DNA of 64,000 nucleotides from Escherichia coli 042 (lineage in GTDB: Bacteria > Pseudomonadota > Gammaproteobacteria > Enterobacterales > Enterobacteriaceae): NCBI RefSeq assembly GCF_000027125.1, contig NC_017626.1; one strand, 5' to 3'. This document shows, piece after piece, positions 10,706-62,524 of this stretch. The stretch's first letter is position 1. Each line of letters opens with the position of its first letter. Both the position numbers and the translations under genes were made by a program. The notes under the pieces are model-generated. The model ran no database searches. It saw only the letters and a list, made by a program, of their open reading frames with translations, and was not told where the DNA came from.

Positions 10706-11029
10706 TCGTTTTTCCTTAAACAAGGAATGCAGCCGTTCAGATTAGCCCTTACATCTCCCCAAAACTGAACGTGCGAGTTATTGAGGGTGCATGCTGCACT
10801 CCACACCAGAGCTTTGACGACACCACTCGTTTCAATGGGGGAATTCTGTGGCATGGTATAAAGCACAGCATAATCGCCAATAACGAAGCCAATTTTAATG
10901 TACTTCCGAATTGGCGGTCACGTTAATCTTTCCATCAATATTGTTTTCTTCGTAAAGGCTCGAGTTTTTATGCTAAAGATTACAAGTTGCTTGTAAAAGA
11001 TAACCGCCCTGATCCATAATCGCTCTTGT

Positions 11030-11108
11030 TGAGGGTGCGTGCTGCACAAAATTAAAGTTAAAAAGTAAAACCCCCGTTCCTTACCAGTTCGGGGGTTTTA
11101 CTTTATAA
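11030..11108 (+). ncRNA. ohsC: Candidate OhsC antitoxin sRNA (approximate ends)
   Basis: Plus-strand segment holding the second copy of a 19-nt direct repeat (11039-11057) shared with the shoB 5' region (10781-10799), ending in a hairpin plus T-run; -10-like cataat at 11025-11030. Confidence 0.45.
11081..11108. terminator. Bidirectional terminator (acpS operon / candidate ohsC)
   Basis: cccccg ... cggggg hairpin flanked by an A-run and a T-run. Confidence 0.6.
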
Positions 11109-12987: not shown

Positions 12988-14600
<1,613 letters not shown>

Positions 14601-14602
14601 TC

Positions 14603-14698
14603 AGCACACGAAACAGACCTGATATACATGGCTCTGCTAACTGCTTCGCTGCAGTTTCAGTTTACCGGTATATGGGGACCAACGCTGTTTCGTGTGCC
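14603..14698 (-). promoter_or_regulatory. rnc leader stem-loop (rncO-like RNase III autoregulatory site)
   Basis: 12-bp inverted repeat cacacgaaacag (14605-14616) / ctgtttcgtgtg (14685-14696) in the 5' leader of rnc. Confidence 0.6.
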
Positions 14699-14842
14699 GT
14701 GGCAACCTGGAGGTGCCAACCTTAAACTTCGGGGGAATATTCTATACACAACGACGGGGGATGTCGTTAGCCACGGGAGATTTATCTCATAAATAATTCA
14801 CGTTGTCGCCATAACGGCGACAACGTGAACGAAGATGGGCTA

Positions 14843-15832: not shown

Positions 15833-17632
<1,800 letters not shown>

Positions 17633-17829
17633 AAAGTATGATTATTGTGCCTTAATGCCCGGTTAACCAGGCTTTTAGAAGTCGCTGTTCTGAGCTTAAC
17701 GTCTGTATTAATAGAAACGCCGCATTCTACACTACAACATTGAGGCGAGGAAATGTTCATACCGTATGGATTGTGGTATCTGGAAACGTCCTCGCATTTG
17801 TTATGCAAAATGCAACAAAGCCAGTGAAA

Positions 17830-18309
17830 TCACTGGCTCGCGTCTTCCGAAGATGTTTCAAATCGCACAAGGCCAGGCGGCAATGCCACGCTTAAGATGA
17901 TCGGTTGCCATTCAGACCGGGCAGCAAACTTTCGAGAGCCGCCACGTGCAATCAGGAATCCACCAACGCCACCGAGAATCGCACCGCATAATGCTGCAAT
18001 ATCTGAAGCAAAGAGTAGCTGAAATAGTGAAGCGATGAGGAATAGTCCCACCAACGGCGACATATAAACCAGTAATGCGGAGCTAAGCAGGCTGCCTTCG
18101 GCGATCCCCAATTCCACTTTTTGCCCCGGCACTAACGGTTCATCACAGGGTACGACAATGGTATGCGTGGTTTGCGGGCCAAGTTTATTCAACACGCGGC
18201 TACCGCAACCGGCGCGTGAAGCGCAGCTGCTGCATGAGGCTTTAACATCACAACTAACCAGCGCCTGCCCGTTTTCCCAGGAGATGACGGTAGCCCACTC
18301 TTTGATCAT
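17830..18309 (-). CDS. rseC: Sigma-E regulatory protein RseC
   Basis: 159-aa ORF; position in the rpoE-rseABC operon. Confidence 0.9.
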   Translation of the reverse strand: MIKEWATVISWENGQALVSCDVKASCSSCASRAGCGSRVLNKLGPQTTHTIVVPCDEPLVPGQKVELGIAEGSLLSSALLVYMSPLVGLFLIASLFQLLFASDIAALCGAILGGVGGFLIARGGSRKFAARSEWQPIILSVALPPGLVRFETSSEDASQ

Positions 18310-19262
18310 TGCGCTGCCCCGAACTTAATATTCTCGGCAATGCGTTTCGCCGTTTGCGGCGGCAGTTCACCGACAATGGTGATTTCGGCGTTATCACGTA
18401 CGCTTGTACTGACGGTTCTGCGTCCGGTGCGCAACATCTGATCGGTGCTCGATGGCGTAGCGCGGTTAACGTTTACCGAAAAGCTGAATAATCCGTCGGA
18501 ATAGAGACGTGATTCGATAGGCATGTTGTCCATCGTCGGTAGCGGACGTCGACTACTGGAAACTTCGCTAAAACCCTGTGGCAACCAGGTTGGCGTCCAG
18601 CTGAATTTAGCTTTTTCACCTACAGGAACAGAAAGCAACGGCGGCAAATTTGCCTTCGCCAACGTCTGCATACTGCTGCTGATATCCTGATTGACATTAA
18701 AAGCAATCACGCGAAATTGTTCCAGCGTTTCACCATCGCGATCAAGGAGATCAACCCGCATCGGTAATTTCGATTCGGTGTCCATCCACACGATGTAGCT
18801 GTAGCGTGTACCATCTCGGGCAACCACACGAATGACTTCGCAAAGACGATCAGCAATACGCGTGCGCCCGACGGAGATAAAGTCGTAGTAAGGAGAAAGG
18901 CGTTTGAAATCGGTATAGATGAGCGATGGTAGAGAATCAACAATGTAATCGCCATTAAGCGTGAACGGTTCAAGTCCCGGTTCAAAATAGCTGATTTCAT
19001 TGCCGCGCTGTACCACTTCCCGGCGCGGGCCATCCATTTGCAACAATTGTGCAAGAGGACGGTTATCGAGGCGTGCATGTCGATAACGCAGAGACTCAAC
19101 ACCCTGTTTATTGATGCTGATGAATGACAGCTCGTAATTCAGTGACTGACTGGCCAGGTTCATCTGCTGTAATAACGCCCCGGACGCGGGAGTGGCCGAG
19201 GCGTTAGCAGAGAATAACAGGCTACCTGTCACTAATGACATGGCAAACCAAAGTTGCTTCAT
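18306..19262 (-). CDS. rseB: Sigma-E regulatory protein RseB
   Basis: 318-aa ORF with signal peptide. Confidence 0.92.
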   Translation of the reverse strand: MKQLWFAMSLVTGSLLFSANASATPASGALLQQMNLASQSLNYELSFISINKQGVESLRYRHARLDNRPLAQLLQMDGPRREVVQRGNEISYFEPGLEPFTLNGDYIVDSLPSLIYTDFKRLSPYYDFISVGRTRIADRLCEVIRVVARDGTRYSYIVWMDTESKLPMRVDLLDRDGETLEQFRVIAFNVNQDISSSMQTLAKANLPPLLSVPVGEKAKFSWTPTWLPQGFSEVSSSRRPLPTMDNMPIESRLYSDGLFSFSVNVNRATPSSTDQMLRTGRRTVSTSVRDNAEITIVGELPPQTAKRIAENIKFGAAQ

Positions 19263-24790: not shown

Positions 24791-24819
24791 GCCTGATGCG
24801 CTACGCTTATCAGGCCTAC
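24791..24819. repeat. REP / palindromic unit
   Basis: gcctgatgcgctacgcttatcaggcctac, REP-like palindrome. Confidence 0.65.
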
Positions 24820-24854
24820 ATGGCTCATGCAATATATTGAATTTGCACGATCTT

Positions 24855-43062: not shown

Positions 43063-43243
43063 AAAAGTTTGATGCTCAAAGAATTAAACTTCGTAATGAA
43101 TTACGTGTTCACTCTTGAGACTTGGTATTCATTTTTCGTCTTGCGACGTTAAGAATCCGTATCTTCGAGTGCCCACACAGATTGTCTGATAAATTGTTAA
43201 AGAGCAGTGCCGCTTCGCTTTTTCTCAGCGGCGCGGGGTGTGC

Positions 43244-43271
43244 ATAATACGCTTTCCCGCTACAGAGTCAA
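43244..43271 (-). promoter_or_regulatory. rRNA operon promoter P2
   Basis: Minus strand TTGACT, 16-nt spacer, TATTAT, then GCACACC, as in rrn P2. Confidence 0.7.
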
Positions 43272-43360
43272 GCATTTTTTGCTTTTCTCTGTTGAGATTC
43301 TCAGGAGAACCCCGCTGACCCGGCGGCGTGTTTGCCGTTGTTCCGTGTCAGTGGTGGCGC

Positions 43361-43388
43361 ATTATAGGGAGTTATTCCGGCCTGACAA
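43361..43388 (-). promoter_or_regulatory. rRNA operon promoter P1
   Basis: Minus strand TTGTCAGGCCGGAATAACTCCCTATAATGCGCCACCACTG; A/T-rich UP/FIS region continues to about 43460. Confidence 0.8.
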
Positions 43389-43472
43389 GCGAAAAATATA
43401 AAAACTTTATCGTTCGCTCATTTTTCAGGCAAAACATCTTAAATATAGTCTTTTCCGTCTAATTTATAGACA

Positions 43473-43499
43473 AAAACGAGCCCCGAAGGGCTCGTTTTA
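43473..43499 (-). terminator. clpB rho-independent terminator
   Basis: aaaacgagccc-cgaa-gggctcgtttt hairpin with T-run immediately 3' of the clpB stop. Confidence 0.8.
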
Positions 43500-43502
43500 T
43501 CA

Positions 43503-46076
43503 TTACTGGACGGCGACAATCCGGTCTTCATTAACTTCCAGGCGAATAACTTTACCCGGAACCAATTCACCAGACAGTATTTGCTGTGCCAGCGGGTTTT
43601 CGATCTGCTGCTGGATAGCACGTTTCAGAGGACGTGCACCATAGACCGGATCGTAACCGTTCTCGCTCAGCAGTTTCAGCGCCTCGTCAGAAATGTGGAT
43701 TTCATAACCACGTTCTTCCAGACGTTTGTACAGACGTTTCAACTGAATCTGCGCAATCGACGCAATGTGCTGTTCACCCAGCGGATGGAAGACCACCACT
43801 TCATCGATACGGTTAATGAATTCCGGACGGAAGTTATGGCTTACCACACCGAGCACCAGCTCTTTCATGTGCGCATAATCCAGTTCACCGAAGCGTTCCT
43901 GAATCAAATCGGAACCGAGGTTAGAGGTCATAATGACAACCGTATTACGGAAGTCGACCGTTCTCCCCTGCCCGTCAGTCAGACGCCCATCATCCAGTAC
44001 CTGCAACAGAATGTTGAAGACATCCGGATGCGCTTTTTCCACTTCATCCAGCAGTATGACGGAATACGGACGACGACGCACCGCTTCGGTCAGGTAGCCA
44101 CCTTCTTCATAACCGACATATCCCGGAGGCGCACCAACCAGACGAGACACCGAGTGTTTCTCCATAAACTCGGACATATCGATACGGACCATCGCCTCGT
44201 CGCTATCAAACATAAAGTTCGCCAGCGCCTTACAAAGCTCAGTTTTCCCCACACCCGTTGGGCCGAGGAACAGGAATGAACCAATCGGGCGATTCGGGTC
44301 AGCAAGCCCTGCGCGGCTACGACGAATAGCGTTAGATACCGCATCAACCGCTTCGTTCTGACCAATAACGCGATGGTGCAGCTCTTGCTCCATACGCAGC
44401 AGTTTTTCGCGCTCGCTTTCCATCATGCGAGAAACCGGAATCCCCGTCCAACGCGCCAGCACTTCAGCAATTTCGGCGTCGGTCACTTTATTACGCAACA
44501 GACGCATAGTTTTGCCTTCGAGCTGCGTTGCGGCTTCCAGTTGCTTTTCCAGTTCCGGGATTTTGCCGTATTGCAGTTCAGACATCCGCGCCAGGTCCCC
44601 CACACGGCGAGCCTGTTCAATAGCGATTTTCGCCTGTTCCAGTTCCGCTTTAATGGTCTGCGTACCAGAAAGCGATGCCTTCTCTGCTTTCCACTCTTCT
44701 TCTAACTCAGAGTACTGACGTTCTTTGTCGCTCAGTTCTTCGTTGAGCATATCCAGACGTTTTTTACTGGCTTCATCAGACTCTTTCATTAACGCCTGTT
44801 GTTCCAGTTTGAGCTGGATGATACGGCGATCGAGTCGGTCGAGTTCTTCTGGTTTTGAGTCAATCTGCATACGAATGCTGGATGCTGCTTCATCGATCAG
44901 GTCGATGGCTTTATCCGGCAGCTGACGGTCAGCAATGTAGCGATGTGACAACGTCGCCGCTGCAACAATTGCCGGGTCAGTAATTTGCACATGGTGGTGC
45001 AGCTCGTAACGTTCTTTCAGGCCACGCAGAATCGCAATGGTATCTTCAACAGAAGGCTCGGCAACAAACACTTTCTGGAAACGACGTTCCAGCGCAGCAT
45101 CTTTTTCGATGTACTGGCGATATTCGTCAAGCGTCGTGGCACCTACGCAGTGCAATTCACCACGCGCCAGCGCCGGTTTCAGCATGTTTCCGGCGTCCAT
45201 TGCGCCATCTGCTTTACCCGCGCCGACCATGGTATGTAATTCGTCGATAAACAGGATGACGTTGCCTTCCTGTTTAGCAAGATCGTTAAGTACGCCTTTT
45301 AAACGTTCTTCAAACTCACCGCGATATTTCGCCCCAGCCACCAGCGCGCCCATATCCAGCGCCAGTACGCGGCGGCCTTTCAACCCTTCCGGCACTTCGC
45401 CGTTGATGATACGCTGCGCCAGACCTTCAACGATGGCAGTTTTACCGACGCCTGGTTCACCAATCAGTACCGGGTTATTTTTAGTACGACGTTGCAGCAC
45501 CTGAATGGTACGGCGAATTTCTTCATCACGACCAATCACCGGATCGAGTTTACCCTGTTCGGCTCGTTCGGTAAGGTCGATGGTATATTTTTTCAAAGCC
45601 TGACGTTGGTCTTCAGCACCTTGATCGTTCACGCTTTCACCTCCACGCATTTGTTCAATCGCTTGAGTAATGTTGGCGGTGGTCGCCCCTGCTGCTTTCA
45701 GGATGTCGGCCAGCGTGCCGCGAGACTCAAGTGCCGCCAGAACGAACAGTTCTGACGAGATAAAGTTATCACCACGTTTTTGCGCCAGCTTGTCGCAAAG
45801 ATTAAGAACGCGCACCAGATCCTGTGATGGCTGGACATCACCACCAGTACCTTCAACCTGCGGTAAACGATTTAATGCCTGATTGATATCTGTGCGCAAC
45901 TGGCCAGCATTAATGCCAGCGGATGTTAATAAAGGACTAACCGAACCCCCTTCCTGATTCAGCAGGGCGCTCATTAAATGAAGTGGTTCGATGAATTGGT
46001 TGTCGTGCCCGAGTGCAAGTGATTGGGCATCGGCAAGAGCAAGCTGGAATTTATTAGTAAGACGATCCAGACGCAT
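43503..46076 (-). CDS. clpB: Chaperone / disaggregase ClpB
   Basis: ORF 43503..46088; start trimmed to [18 protein letters not shown] (857 aa); two AAA+ modules ([16 protein letters not shown]). Confidence 0.96.
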
Positions 46077-46114
46077 AACTCCTCCCATAACGGATCAAAG
46101 TTGCTACTGGAGAT

Positions 46115-46144
46115 TAAATGAGGTCATCCCTCAATTATTCAAGG
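46115..46144 (-). promoter_or_regulatory. Sigma-32 heat-shock promoter of clpB
   Basis: Minus strand CCTTGAA, 14-nt spacer, CCTCATTTA. Confidence 0.7.
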
Positions 46145-46205
46145 TTATTGACCAGATTAATGTGAAAAGAAAATCACGCGTACCGGATCGTCTTGATTCT
46201 TTAGG

Positions 46206-46937
46206 TTATATCAGCCAAATGAAACTTGCCATACGACCGGTGGTCTTGTCGCGACGATAAGAGAAGAAAGTCTCATTTTCCGTATATGTACAACGGTCAC
46301 CGCCGAAAATTTGTTCGACACCGACGTTCGCCAGACGCTGCCGGGCAAGGAGATAAATATCCGCCAGATACTTATCACCATGCTGAATGAAAGCTGTACT
46401 CGCTTTGGCGTCTACTGCCATAAACGCCTCGCGAACCTCCGCCCCCACTTCAAACGCGCGTGGACCAATTGCCGGCCCTAACCAGGCGAGAATATTTTCC
46501 GGATTATCAGCAAAACAGGAAACCGTCTCTTCCAGCACGCCTGAGCACAGTCCACGCCAGCCAGCATGAGCGGCGGCGACTTCCGTTCCCGCTCGATTGC
46601 AAAACAGCACGGGGAGGCAGTCGGCAGTCATCACTGCGCAAACCGTGCCCGGCGTGTTGCTATAAGAGGCATCTGCTCGTTTTGAGGCATAAGGTTCGCC
46701 AGTAAGCTTAAGCACATCTTTGCCGTGTACCTGCTCAAGCCAGACCGGTTTTGAAGGCAAACTGCCCGCAGCAAAAAGTCGCTTGCGATTCTCCTCAACG
46801 TGATCCGGGTTATCGCCACAATGAGCACCGAGGTTGAGCGAGTCATACGGGGGCAAGCTCACGCCGCCGATACGAGTGGAGCTACAGGCCGCAACACCTT
46901 TTGGCAGCGGCCACTGCGGGACAATCAGCTTACTCAT
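46206..46937 (-). CDS. pgeF: Purine nucleoside phosphorylase / laccase-domain protein PgeF (YfiH)
   Basis: 243-aa ORF recognised as YfiH. Confidence 0.9.
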   Translation of the reverse strand: MSKLIVPQWPLPKGVAACSSTRIGGVSLPPYDSLNLGAHCGDNPDHVEENRKRLFAAGSLPSKPVWLEQVHGKDVLKLTGEPYASKRADASYSNTPGTVCAVMTADCLPVLFCNRAGTEVAAAHAGWRGLCSGVLEETVSCFADNPENILAWLGPAIGPRAFEVGAEVREAFMAVDAKASTAFIQHGDKYLADIYLLARQRLANVGVEQIFGGDRCTYTENETFFSYRRDKTTGRMASFIWLI

Positions 46938-49446: not shown

Positions 49447-49500
49447 TGACAGCGTGAAAACAGTACGGGTACTGTACTGAAGTCACTTAAGGAAACAAAC

Positions 49501-49548
49501 ATGAAACACACACCGTTTTTCTTCGCATTCTTTTTTACCTTCCCCTGA
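49501..49548 (+). CDS. pheL: pheA leader peptide (Phe-rich)
   Basis: Hand translation: MKHTPFFFAFFFTFP* (15 aa, 7 Phe). Not in ORF track. Confidence 0.9.
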   Translation: MKHTPFFFAFFFTFP

Positions 49549-49594
49549 ATGGGAGGCGTTTCGTCGTGTGAAACAGAATGCGAAGACGAACAAT

Positions 49595-49625
49595 AAGGCC
49601 TCCCAAACCGGGGGGCCTTTTTTAT
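49595..49625 (+). terminator. pheA attenuator terminator
   Basis: aggcctccc-aaacc-ggggggcct hairpin followed by TTTTTTATT. Confidence 0.8.

Positions 49626-61906: not shown

Positions 61907-62524
<618 letters not shown>

Follow-up and report, generated by a model that had tools for sequence, protein, structure and literature searches.

Genomic context and identity of clpB

The region considered here lies within a 64-kb window (the whole stretch of DNA that was analysed) and almost certainly represents the control sequences at the 5′ side of clpB, the gene for the E. coli heat-shock disaggregase. Three nested elements are found in them, each of them described before: a sigma-32 promoter, a second translation start inside the coding sequence, and the small RNA gene ryfD. 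The gene and its terminator are placed as follows:

43503..46076, minus strand: clpB coding sequence (ClpB95), 857 aa; matches NF008118, and the protein is that of K-12 ClpB
43471..43498, minus strand: clpB intrinsic terminator, AAAACGAGCCC TTCG GGGCTCGTTTT TG, read from the sequence

The NCBIfam equivalog model for ClpB (NF008118 / TIGR03346) aligns to residues 1-857 of 857 with 1926.7 bits against a cutoff of 1417, and the Pfam domains follow the order of two Clp_N stretches and then the AAA domains (Clp_N, AAA, AAA_lid_9, AAA_2, ClpB_D2-small). The encoded protein is 100% identical to that of K-12. At the nucleotide level, four substitutions were found relative to K-12 in 801 bp (46299, 45993, 45912, and 45552); none of these changes the ClpB protein, all fall outside the regulatory elements, and both the yfiH–clpB intergenic region and the internal start site show zero differences. 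We are dealing with the same locus as K-12 clpB (b2592; products ClpB and ClpB80; sigma-32 promoter), with the promoter, the Shine-Dalgarno (SD) sequence, and the GTG at codon 149 unchanged, and with the same flanks, rluD-yfiH upstream and rrnG downstream. The K-12 annotation carries clpB, ClpB80, and ryfD at matching coordinates. The promoter, the ClpB80 start, and RyfD are thus already known, and their recovery here is correct but ordinary.

A sigma-32 promoter upstream of clpB

46115..46144, minus strand: clpB sigma-32 promoter; -35 CCTTGAA (46144-46138), 14-nt spacer TAATTGAGGGATGA, -10 CCTCATTTA (46123-46115)
46106..46109, minus strand: putative sigma-32 transcription start, approximately 7 nt past the -10 element (near 46108), placed by the usual geometry of sigma-32 promoters

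The original prediction had read CCTTGAA-N14-CCTCATTTA upstream of clpB as a heat-shock promoter, and the motif is present exactly as described, at 46144-46115 on the minus strand. The -35 element matches the CTTGAA of the sigma-32 -35 consensus CTTGAA(A) at 6 of 6 positions, the -10 element CCTCATTT agrees with 6 of the 7 specified bases of CCCCATNT, and the spacer of 14 falls within the class range of 13-15. Scanning both strands of the 64-kb window for CTTGAA-N13-17-CCCCATNT, with a requirement of at least 12 of the 13 specified bases, yielded two matches, namely the clpB site and a site directly upstream of the classical heat-shock gene grpE (62573-62546, minus strand); the same scan applied to Markov-shuffled sequence gave a mean of 0.5 sites. 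The grpE promoter, CTTGAA-N14-CCCCATAA, shares its motif class and spacing with that of clpB, but its -10 is nearer to consensus (CCCCAT, versus CCTCAT at clpB), and, unlike at clpB, no overlapping sRNA family was detected at the grpE site. Across the 81 orthologous Enterobacterales loci, the core of the clpB promoter (TTGAA together with CC..A..T) is invariant, 81 of 81. The clpB ATG follows 38 nt past the end of the -10 element. A motif match of this rarity in this position supports the assignment as a predicted sigma-32 (RpoH) heat-shock promoter. From it, clpB mRNA would start near 46108 with a short, unstructured leader: the geometry suggests a length of approximately 32 nt, and an RNA beginning at 46108 is predicted to have no more structure than its shuffled counterparts (z +0.57).

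Two translation starts within one clpB mRNA

46079..46086, minus strand: SD of full-length clpB, GGGAGGAG, preceding the ATG at 46076-46074
45637..45644, minus strand: internal SD, GGAGGTGA, coded by Gly145-Gly146-Glu147
43503..45632, minus strand: ClpB80 coding sequence, 709 aa, starting at GTG codon 149 (45632-45630), without the N-terminal Clp_N domain

The Clp_N domain, which is missing from ClpB80, is the substrate-binding domain, and ClpB80 co-assembles with ClpB95. At the full-length start, G46085, G46084, and G46082 of the SD are invariant among the 81 Enterobacterales sequences. An in-frame ATG at 46088, which would open an 861-aa reading frame, was rejected as the clpB start: it falls within the SD, no other SD precedes it, and Serratia, Yersinia, and Photorhabdus lack it.

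Codon 149 is indeed a GTG with a strong internal ribosome-binding site, as had been predicted: GGAGGT (45644-45639) is followed by a 6-nt gap, GAAAGC. Among the 49 in-frame internal ATG, GTG, and TTG codons, GTG149 has the strongest predicted pairing with the 3′ end of 16S rRNA (-10.6 kcal/mol, with -8.4 for the next-best internal codon and -10.2 for the annotated clpB start), and the 50 nt around it rank in the least structured 11% of clpB windows. The proposed correspondence with the known truncated isoform is borne out by the K-12 RefSeq annotation, where ClpB80 is a separate coding sequence (YP_010051194.1) starting at the same GTG, and by published experiments. The initiation peak that the original prediction looked for is seen in Ribo-RET data, which show a specific peak at the known internal site of clpB in E. 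coli (10.1101/520783), and in Salmonella a chromosomal GTG445-to-CTT change abolishes the short ClpB isoform, whereas mutation of Met143 does not (PMC11005335).

Conservation of the GTG and its SD in other enterobacteria, on which the original prediction had staked the internal start, also held. Of the 81 Enterobacterales sequences, 70 have GTG or ATG at codon 149, compared with 32% GTG at other Val codons; GTG alone accounts for 69/81 (binomial p ~2e-23 against local Val codon usage, with phylogenetic relatedness ignored). Gly145 is encoded by the rare codon GGA in 47/81, versus a background of 12% (p ~2e-22, relatedness again being ignored). The strength of the internal SD tracks the presence of the start codon, at -9.6 kcal/mol where the codon is present and -6.2 kcal/mol where it is absent. 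The internal start is not universal: in the remaining 11 of the 81 sequences (3 Yersinia, 6 Photorhabdus, Moellerella, and Dickeya undicola), codon 149 is GTT, ATT, or GTC and the SD is weaker. By this pattern of codon choice, the internal start and its SD are conserved beyond what the protein sequence requires.

One might instead suppose that the 80-kDa ClpB is a product of proteolysis, or that it is initiated at the Met143 ATG (45650-45648) rather than at GTG149. Met143 is in frame, only 6 codons upstream of GTG149, and it was the codon picked by the Ribo-RET start-site caller in Salmonella (PMC11005335). However, in the Salmonella experiments the Met143 mutant keeps both isoforms and the GTG149 mutant loses the short one; GGAGGT lies downstream of the Met143 codon and so cannot serve it as an SD; and 23/81 species have Leu, Ile, or Val in place of Met143. 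Met143 is ruled out as the internal start by the published mutagenesis (PMC11005335), and we regard the whole alternative as having next to no chance of being correct. On the clpB mRNA, ribosomes start at AUG 46076, guided by GGGAGGAG, to make the 857-aa ClpB95, and independently at GUG 45632, guided by GGAGGU with a 6-nt spacer in a weakly structured context, to make ClpB80.

The arrangement resembles those of infB (IF2 alpha/beta) and mrcB, in which one mRNA likewise gives two proteins with different N termini by way of an internal SD and start, and whose internal starts are each visible as a Ribo-RET peak (10.1101/520783). The proteins themselves differ, and the short form of ClpB loses an entire domain, Clp_N, and shares a hexamer with the long form.

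RyfD is a separate transcription unit that contains the sigma-32 promoter

46056..46198, minus strand: RyfD sRNA, 143 nt, which extends over the intergenic region with the sigma-32 promoter DNA in it and reaches 21 nt into clpB
46205..46232, minus strand: putative RyfD sigma-70 promoter; -35 ATGGCA (46232-46227), 16-nt spacer, extended -10 TGATATAAC (46213-46205)

It had also been suspected that a short clpB leader, taken as 46077-46205, overlaps ryfD of K-12. The overlap with RyfD is real, but the span named is the whole yfiH–clpB intergenic region and not the sigma-32 5′ UTR. Rfam family RF02768 (Ysr155_RyfD) matches 46057-46195 on the minus strand with 125.3 bits (gathering score 42) over model positions 1-140 of 140. 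The comparison with the K-12 annotation that the original prediction proposed gives zero differences: K-12 ryfD (b4609, 2734153-2734295) maps to 46056-46198 with 100% identity, and its position relative to yfiH and clpB is likewise unchanged. The family occurs at the same position in 72 of 80 other species, between yfiH and clpB, in the sense orientation to clpB and overlapping its start. Published work describes RyfD as an abundant ProQ-associated sRNA, recovered by ProQ co-immunoprecipitation.

The putative RyfD promoter overlaps the last codons of yfiH and its stop TAA (46208-46206). Its geometry would place +1 at 46198, the annotated 5′ end of ryfD, and its hexamers recur among the 81 orthologous loci (TGATATAAC in 50, ATGGCA in 60). 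A generic sigma-70 scan did not list this promoter, since the scan requires a T at the sixth (last) position of the -10; it was located by hand, and its conservation was then checked. A transcription start site at the RyfD 5′ end has been mapped by three methods, two of which select 5′-triphosphate ends (PMC3415461 Table S2).

These observations bear on whether RyfD could be a mere stable fragment of the sigma-32 clpB leader, a reading that the original prediction implied. RyfD does overlap the clpB 5′ end in the sense orientation, and a survey in Yersinia classed it with sRNAs overlapping the 5′ ends of genes. However, 54 nt separate its 5′ end at 46198 from the sigma-32 -35 element further downstream; the heat-shock promoter thus sits inside the RyfD gene, and a sigma-32 transcript cannot contain the RyfD 5′ end. 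The start mapped by 5′-triphosphate-selecting methods and the conserved extended -10 promoter at the correct distance from it likewise speak against a fragment, as does a Yersinia northern blot in which RyfD is a discrete RNA, expressed constitutively irrespective of temperature. As far as sequence and published start-site data allow, the fragment reading is already refuted, and we consider it very improbable. RyfD as a transcript of its own would arise from a separate, conserved sigma-70 promoter at the yfiH stop, firing at 46198; the 143-nt ProQ-associated RNA would be transcribed from there across the sigma-32 promoter DNA, with its 3′ end 21 nt into clpB.

Complementarity of RyfD to lpp

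46102..46118, minus strand: near-invariant RyfD block UUUAAUCUCCAGUAGCA, complementary to the first 16 nt of lpp mRNA

This block is at least 90% conserved in the 81 Enterobacterales sequences, and in the DNA it coincides with the 3′ portion of the sigma-32 -10 element, with the discriminator, and with the start region. A TRIC-seq preprint reports an interaction of RyfD with the lpp 5′ UTR. The predicted RyfD–lpp duplex has an energy of -21.6 kcal/mol, and two unrelated sites in the window score -21.5 and -21.3; the complementarity is consistent with the TRIC-seq result and is not unique. One stretch of DNA might in this way serve both in the heat-shock promoter, as its -10 and start region, and in RyfD, as the seed that pairs with lpp.

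A conserved RyfD helix encloses the first clpB codons

46171..46194, minus strand: 5′ arm of the RyfD terminal helix, AAGACGAUCCGG.ACGCGUGAUUU, in both MFE and centroid structures
46059..46082, minus strand: 3′ arm of the terminal helix, running from the last SD bases of clpB through the spacer and AUG to codons 2-6 (CGU CUG GAU CGU CUU)

RyfD has a predicted MFE of -52 kcal/mol (z -5.61), and in this fold the clpB AUG and codons 2-6 are sequestered in a terminal helix of 23 bp. The 5′ arm includes the stretch AAGACGAUCC. The secondary structure is conserved, with weak support for the inner helices: over 78 distinct sequences the terminal helix (helix 1) is 85% paired, compared with 37-46% for slid controls, whereas helices 2-3 are poorly conserved at 55-66% paired. 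The terminal helix is also supported by two compensatory changes, A:U to G:C in Erwinia and A:U to U:A in Tatumella. On the coding side, codons 2-6 show the strongest synonymous suppression among the first 200 codons of clpB, and they are identical in 66/73 RyfD-positive sequences versus 0/8 RyfD-negative ones.

RyfD ends 3 nt beyond the helix, and no U-tract terminator is present. An RNase III origin of the ends seems unlikely on the modeled fold, because they lie outside the helix (as 4-nt 5′ and 3-nt 3′ overhangs) and are not staggered within it. An RNA thermometer at the clpB start was set aside, given that the 23-bp helix of RyfD (-52 kcal/mol) is too stable to melt at heat-shock temperatures and that the sigma-32 transcript does not carry the occluding arm.

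A possible cis-acting role for the RyfD helix

A tentative reading of these features, which we think less likely than its opposite, is that the terminal helix, besides forming part of a trans-acting sRNA, acts in cis as an insulator. Any RNA begun further upstream, whether at the RyfD promoter or through read-through from rluD-yfiH, would carry the 5′ arm, and the arm would tie up the clpB start region (SD end, AUG, and codons 2-6) in the 23-bp helix and prevent translation; the untranslated RNA would be terminated or trimmed back to the helix, leaving RyfD. Because the sigma-32 promoter lies inside the structure, RNA started there would be without the 5′ arm and, with its ribosome-binding site open, would be translated. 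Whether a transcript can be translated would then be decided by the promoter it comes from, and ClpB synthesis would be shielded from constitutive transcription entering from upstream, a proposal that we likewise hold as doubtful.

In favor of such a role, the clpB start region is fully paired in the RyfD fold and unstructured in RNA from the sigma-32 start, and the RyfD 3′ end falls just beyond the helix in the absence of a U-tract. The scan found no terminator-like site between the yfiH stop and the sigma-32 promoter, and the only intergenic candidate, a weak hairpin of 5 bp, falls within the sigma-32 promoter itself (46133-46119). The synonymous constraint on codons 2-6 is gone in the 8 species without RyfD, and the helix has its two compensatory changes. 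Against it, conservation of the helix could serve only the stability of a trans-acting sRNA or a ProQ binding site, and the first codons of a gene may be under synonymous constraint for other reasons. Substitute terminators after yfiH are also inconsistent in the RyfD-less species, with hairpins in Proteus and Edwardsiella and none in Klebsiella sp. BIGb0407 and Moellerella.

Implications

Working from the letters alone, the original prediction arrived at a heat-shock promoter of the textbook kind, an internal start that has been verified, and an sRNA that is already annotated, and the case serves mainly as a positive control; the co-synthesis of ClpB80 and ClpB95, and its relevance to thermotolerance, have been documented before. 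Beyond this, the comparative analysis adds that Yersinia, Photorhabdus, Moellerella, and one Dickeya species have lost both the internal start and its SD, and that RyfD appears to have a conserved promoter of its own at the yfiH stop, with the sigma-32 promoter nested in the RyfD gene. It further suggests that the first clpB codons are constrained as the arm of an RNA helix, which provides a testable idea for a role of RyfD in cis. If the insulator reading is true, ClpB synthesis would depend on which promoter is used.

Layout of the clpB locus

The minus strand between 45500 and 46500 places the end of a 243-aa ORF 129 nt upstream of clpB, and the main features there are as follows.

Features of the clpB locus
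46937-46206, minus strand: upstream 243-aa ORF, YfiH/PgeF (ORF list and profile match)
46057-46195, minus strand: RyfD match RF02768 (Ysr155_RyfD; Rfam, full length, 125.3 bits against a gathering score of 42)
46076 (ATG) to 43503, minus strand: clpB ORF, 857 codons (sequence read)

The clpB ORF is a ClpB equivalog (NF008118, 1926.7 bits against a cutoff of 1417); the two ORFs upstream of it are YfiH/PgeF and RluD, and on its 3' side lie a 16S rRNA gene and then the remainder of the rrn operon. Mechanical ORF listing gives 861 aa by using an in-frame ATG at 46088 (46086-46088, minus strand) that precedes the clpB start by 12 nt; we rejected this codon, which lies inside the Shine–Dalgarno (SD) sequence and is absent in Serratia, Yersinia, and Photorhabdus.

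A 1-kb query was found in 5425 of 5426 complete E. coli genomes. The ClpB protein is identical to that of K-12 MG1655, and the range 46300-45500 differs from MG1655 by four bases; all four leave the protein unchanged and lie outside the intergenic region, the two SD sequences, and the GTG at codon 149. The K-12 RefSeq record annotates clpB (2731600-2734173), a second CDS named "ClpB80" (2731600-2733729) whose start 444 nt downstream is codon 149, and the ncRNA ryfD (b4609, 2734153-2734295), which corresponds to window positions 46056-46198 when the offset is set by the clpB ATG. The sigma-32 promoter, the ClpB80 start, and RyfD are all already known and annotated in K-12. In K-12, ryfD is separated by only about 3 kb from raiA/RaiZ, which is reported to interact with RyfD.

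Several other elements were noted in passing. The intrinsic terminator of clpB (43471-43498, minus strand; GAGCCC-TTCG-GGGCTC followed by a T run) is absent from the terminator-scan output, likely because an A/T extension of the stem uses up the T run. Between it and the 16S rRNA gene, 43184-43433 (minus strand) matches Rfam Ysr197 at 85.6 bits, short of the gathering score of 167; the region holds two near-consensus sigma-70 promoters (TTGTCA-16-TATAAT, 43388-43361; TTGACT-16-TATTAT, 43271-43244), presumably rrn P1 and P2, and the "sRNA" match is therefore probably the rRNA leader. The remaining Rfam matches are all expected in a K-12-like region.

Other Rfam matches at gathering score
1683-1830, minus strand: GlmY
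11028-11104, plus strand: OhsC
14516-14730, minus strand: rncO
17514-18345, plus strand: AsrC (antisense to rseC)
24812-24854, minus strand: ES036
49500-49625, plus strand: Phe leader

The sigma-32 promoter of clpB

A regular expression recovered the predicted heat-shock promoter, CCTTGAA-N14-CCTCATTTA, at 46144-46115 (minus strand), and every coordinate of the original prediction proved correct. A search of the whole 64-kb window, on both strands, for CTTGAA and CCCCATNT separated by 13-17 nt, with at least 12 of the 13 specified bases matched, returned exactly two sites, against a mean of 0.5 in first-order Markov shuffles: the clpB promoter and 62573-62546 (minus strand; CTTGAAACCCTGAAACTGATCCCCATAA). 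The latter lies directly upstream of a 205-aa ORF (61907-62524, minus strand) that we take to be GrpE, recognised from MSSKEQKT onward, with an upstream in-frame ATG preceding; given these identities, both strong matches precede the window's two classical heat-shock genes. The grpE site also serves as an internal positive control for the scan.

In the intergenic alignment, all 81 sequences, among them the eight from species lacking RyfD, carry the same TTGAA in the -35 element and the same C, C, A, and T in the -10 element. Sigma-32 transcripts usually begin about 7 nt past the -10 element, from which we infer a clpB start near 46108. The spacer (46119-46133, minus strand) is unusually conserved and can fold into a small hairpin, UGAGG-GAUGA-CCUCA, with UUUAAU directly after it; both sides are changed (UAAGG / CCUUA) in Xenorhabdus-type sequences (orthologous loci L055, L058, and L069), and an alternative hairpin, CCUUGA / UUGAGG, contests the same bases.

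RyfD has its own upstream start and a probable promoter

The suspected overlap with ryfD is borne out by the K-12 annotation and, independently, by the Rfam match, but 46077-46205 is not the "short leader" it was taken for: RyfD begins at 46198, 54 nt before the sigma-32 -35 element is reached. In a compilation of E. coli sRNA start sites, a transcription start site at the annotated ryfD end is supported by three methods, two of them selective for 5'-triphosphate ends (PMC3415461, Table S2). An extended -10 sequence, TGATATAAC, occupies 46213-46205 (minus strand), its last base 7 nt before 46198, with ATGGCA 16 nt upstream of the -10 hexamer; from their sequence and spacing, these putative promoter hexamers would account for the start at 46198. 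They overlap the final yfiH codons and TAA, and are conserved (TGATATAAC in 50/81 sequences; ATGGCA in 60/81, the third base of the Ala codon being among the conserved positions). The locus therefore comprises two nested transcription units, in which a sigma-70 unit yields RyfD and the sigma-32 promoter sits inside the RyfD gene. At the other end, RyfD stops 3 nt beyond its terminal helix without a U-tract, which points away from an intrinsic terminator and towards either processing or Rho termination with subsequent trimming.

RyfD has been described as constitutive and Hfq-independent in Yersinia and as among the most abundant ProQ-bound sRNAs in Salmonella, and a review names it "the abundant ProQ-associated sRNA"; it elutes in high-molecular-weight fractions with no evidence of translation, and its overexpression reduces swarming. 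Pairing with the lpp 5' UTR was reported in a 2025 preprint. We find that RyfD 46118-46102 (minus strand; UUUAAUCUCCAGUAGCA) can pair with the 5'-terminal 16 nt of lpp mRNA (predicted -21.6 kcal/mol), although two unrelated window sites (16576-16600, plus strand; 18736-18760, minus strand) pair equally well by chance, so the complementarity agrees with the preprint and is alone no proof. At the DNA level, this nearly invariant block also carries the end of the sigma-32 -10 element together with the discriminator and start region; 46102-46118 may thus have two functions, in lpp pairing and in sigma-32 initiation.

A conserved internal start produces ClpB80

As predicted, codon 149 of clpB is GTG (45632-45630; context ATG CGT GGA GGT GAA AGC GTG), with a strong ribosome-binding sequence, GGAGGT, at 45644-45639, 6 nt upstream. 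When the 15 nt upstream of each of the 49 in-frame internal ATG, GTG, and TTG codons were paired with the 16S 3' end, codon 149 scored best (-10.6 kcal/mol, against -10.2 for the annotated start and -8.4 for the next internal candidate), and the surrounding 50 nt fall within the 11% least structured windows of clpB. Initiation profiling and isoform blots, the checks proposed for ClpB80, both exist in published form. Ribo-RET profiling in E. coli gives a specific peak of initiation at the known site within clpB (10.1101/520783). Chromosomally tagged Salmonella ClpB gives two bands, both of which remain when Met143 is mutated; with GTG445-447 (Val149) changed to CTT, the short form disappears and the long one stays (PMC11005335). 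This mutant and the K-12 CDS at codon 149 support the ClpB80 interpretation. Both Clp_N stretches that Pfam finds precede residue 149, and its first AAA domain begins near residue 180, so ClpB80 is made without the N-terminal domain.

The GTG and its SD also persist in other enterobacteria. Among 81 sequences (80 loci from one Enterobacterales genome scan, one per species, plus the window), codon 149 is GTG in 69, ATG in 1, GTT in 8, ATT in 2, and GTC in 1, against a GTG share of 32% among the other Val codons of this 200-codon stretch; at Gly145, GGA is used in 47/81, against a 12% background. The nominal binomial p-values of about 1e-22 for both are overstated, the species being related, but the counts argue that the site is kept well beyond protein-sequence need.

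Loci without a start at codon 149 (orthologous loci of the genome scan; codon 149 at 1945-1947)
L051, L052, L056: Yersinia
L054, L060, L062, L066, L068, L070: Photorhabdus
L064: Moellerella
L072: Dickeya undicola

In these 11 of 81 sequences, GTT, ATT, or GTC at codon 149 is accompanied by GGT or GGC at Gly145, with GGA in none, and predicted SD pairing averages -6.2 kcal/mol; the 70 sequences that have a start codon there average -9.6. The internal start thus appears to have been lost as one unit in a few lineages, where, judging from these codons, ClpB80 may be absent or begun elsewhere.

The RyfD terminal helix and clpB codons 2-6

The predicted fold of the 143-nt RyfD reaches -52 kcal/mol, where shuffles give -31.1 ± 3.7 (z -5.61). 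RNA begun at 46108 shows no excess of structure over its shuffles (z +0.57). A terminal helix of 12 + 11 bp (46194-46171 with 46082-46059) dominates the RyfD fold; its 3' side runs from the final bases of the clpB SD through the spacer and AUG and takes in codons 2-6. Over 78 distinct sequences this helix is 85% paired, against 37-46% in controls with partners slid by 1-3 columns; inner helices are weakly supported (55-66%). The commonest variation is a 5'-arm A-to-G change that retains a G:U pair, with an A:U-to-G:C double change in Erwinia mallotivora and E. psidii and an A:U-to-U:A change of the outermost pair in Tatumella.

RF02768 reaches its gathering score in 72/80 loci, the match always ending at clpB +20, and codons 2-6 are where synonymous variation is most strongly suppressed within the first 200 codons. 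These codons are the same as in E. coli in 66/73 RyfD-positive sequences and in 0/8 RyfD-negative ones (Moellerella, Providencia, two Edwardsiella, two Budvicia, a Pantoea symbiont, and Proteus), which are also the most divergent taxa; yet Photorhabdus and Dickeya, of similar divergence, retain them unchanged. A substitute terminator is not consistently present in the species lacking RyfD, which leaves support for a cis-acting helix incomplete.

Overall, the original prediction is confirmed in its observations, supported in its interpretation, and corrected in its "leader". Heat-shock transcription of clpB would start at the sigma-32 promoter, one clpB mRNA is initiated at both AUG1 and GUG149 to give ClpB95 and ClpB80, and RyfD is a separate primary transcript over the same DNA; each of these elements is shown here or published. 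We further propose, tentatively and as a rather doubtful extension, that the RyfD helix acts in cis: in transcripts arriving from upstream, the clpB ribosome-binding site would be locked and the RNA would become RyfD, and RNA started at the sigma-32 promoter would lack the 5' arm and hence be translatable.
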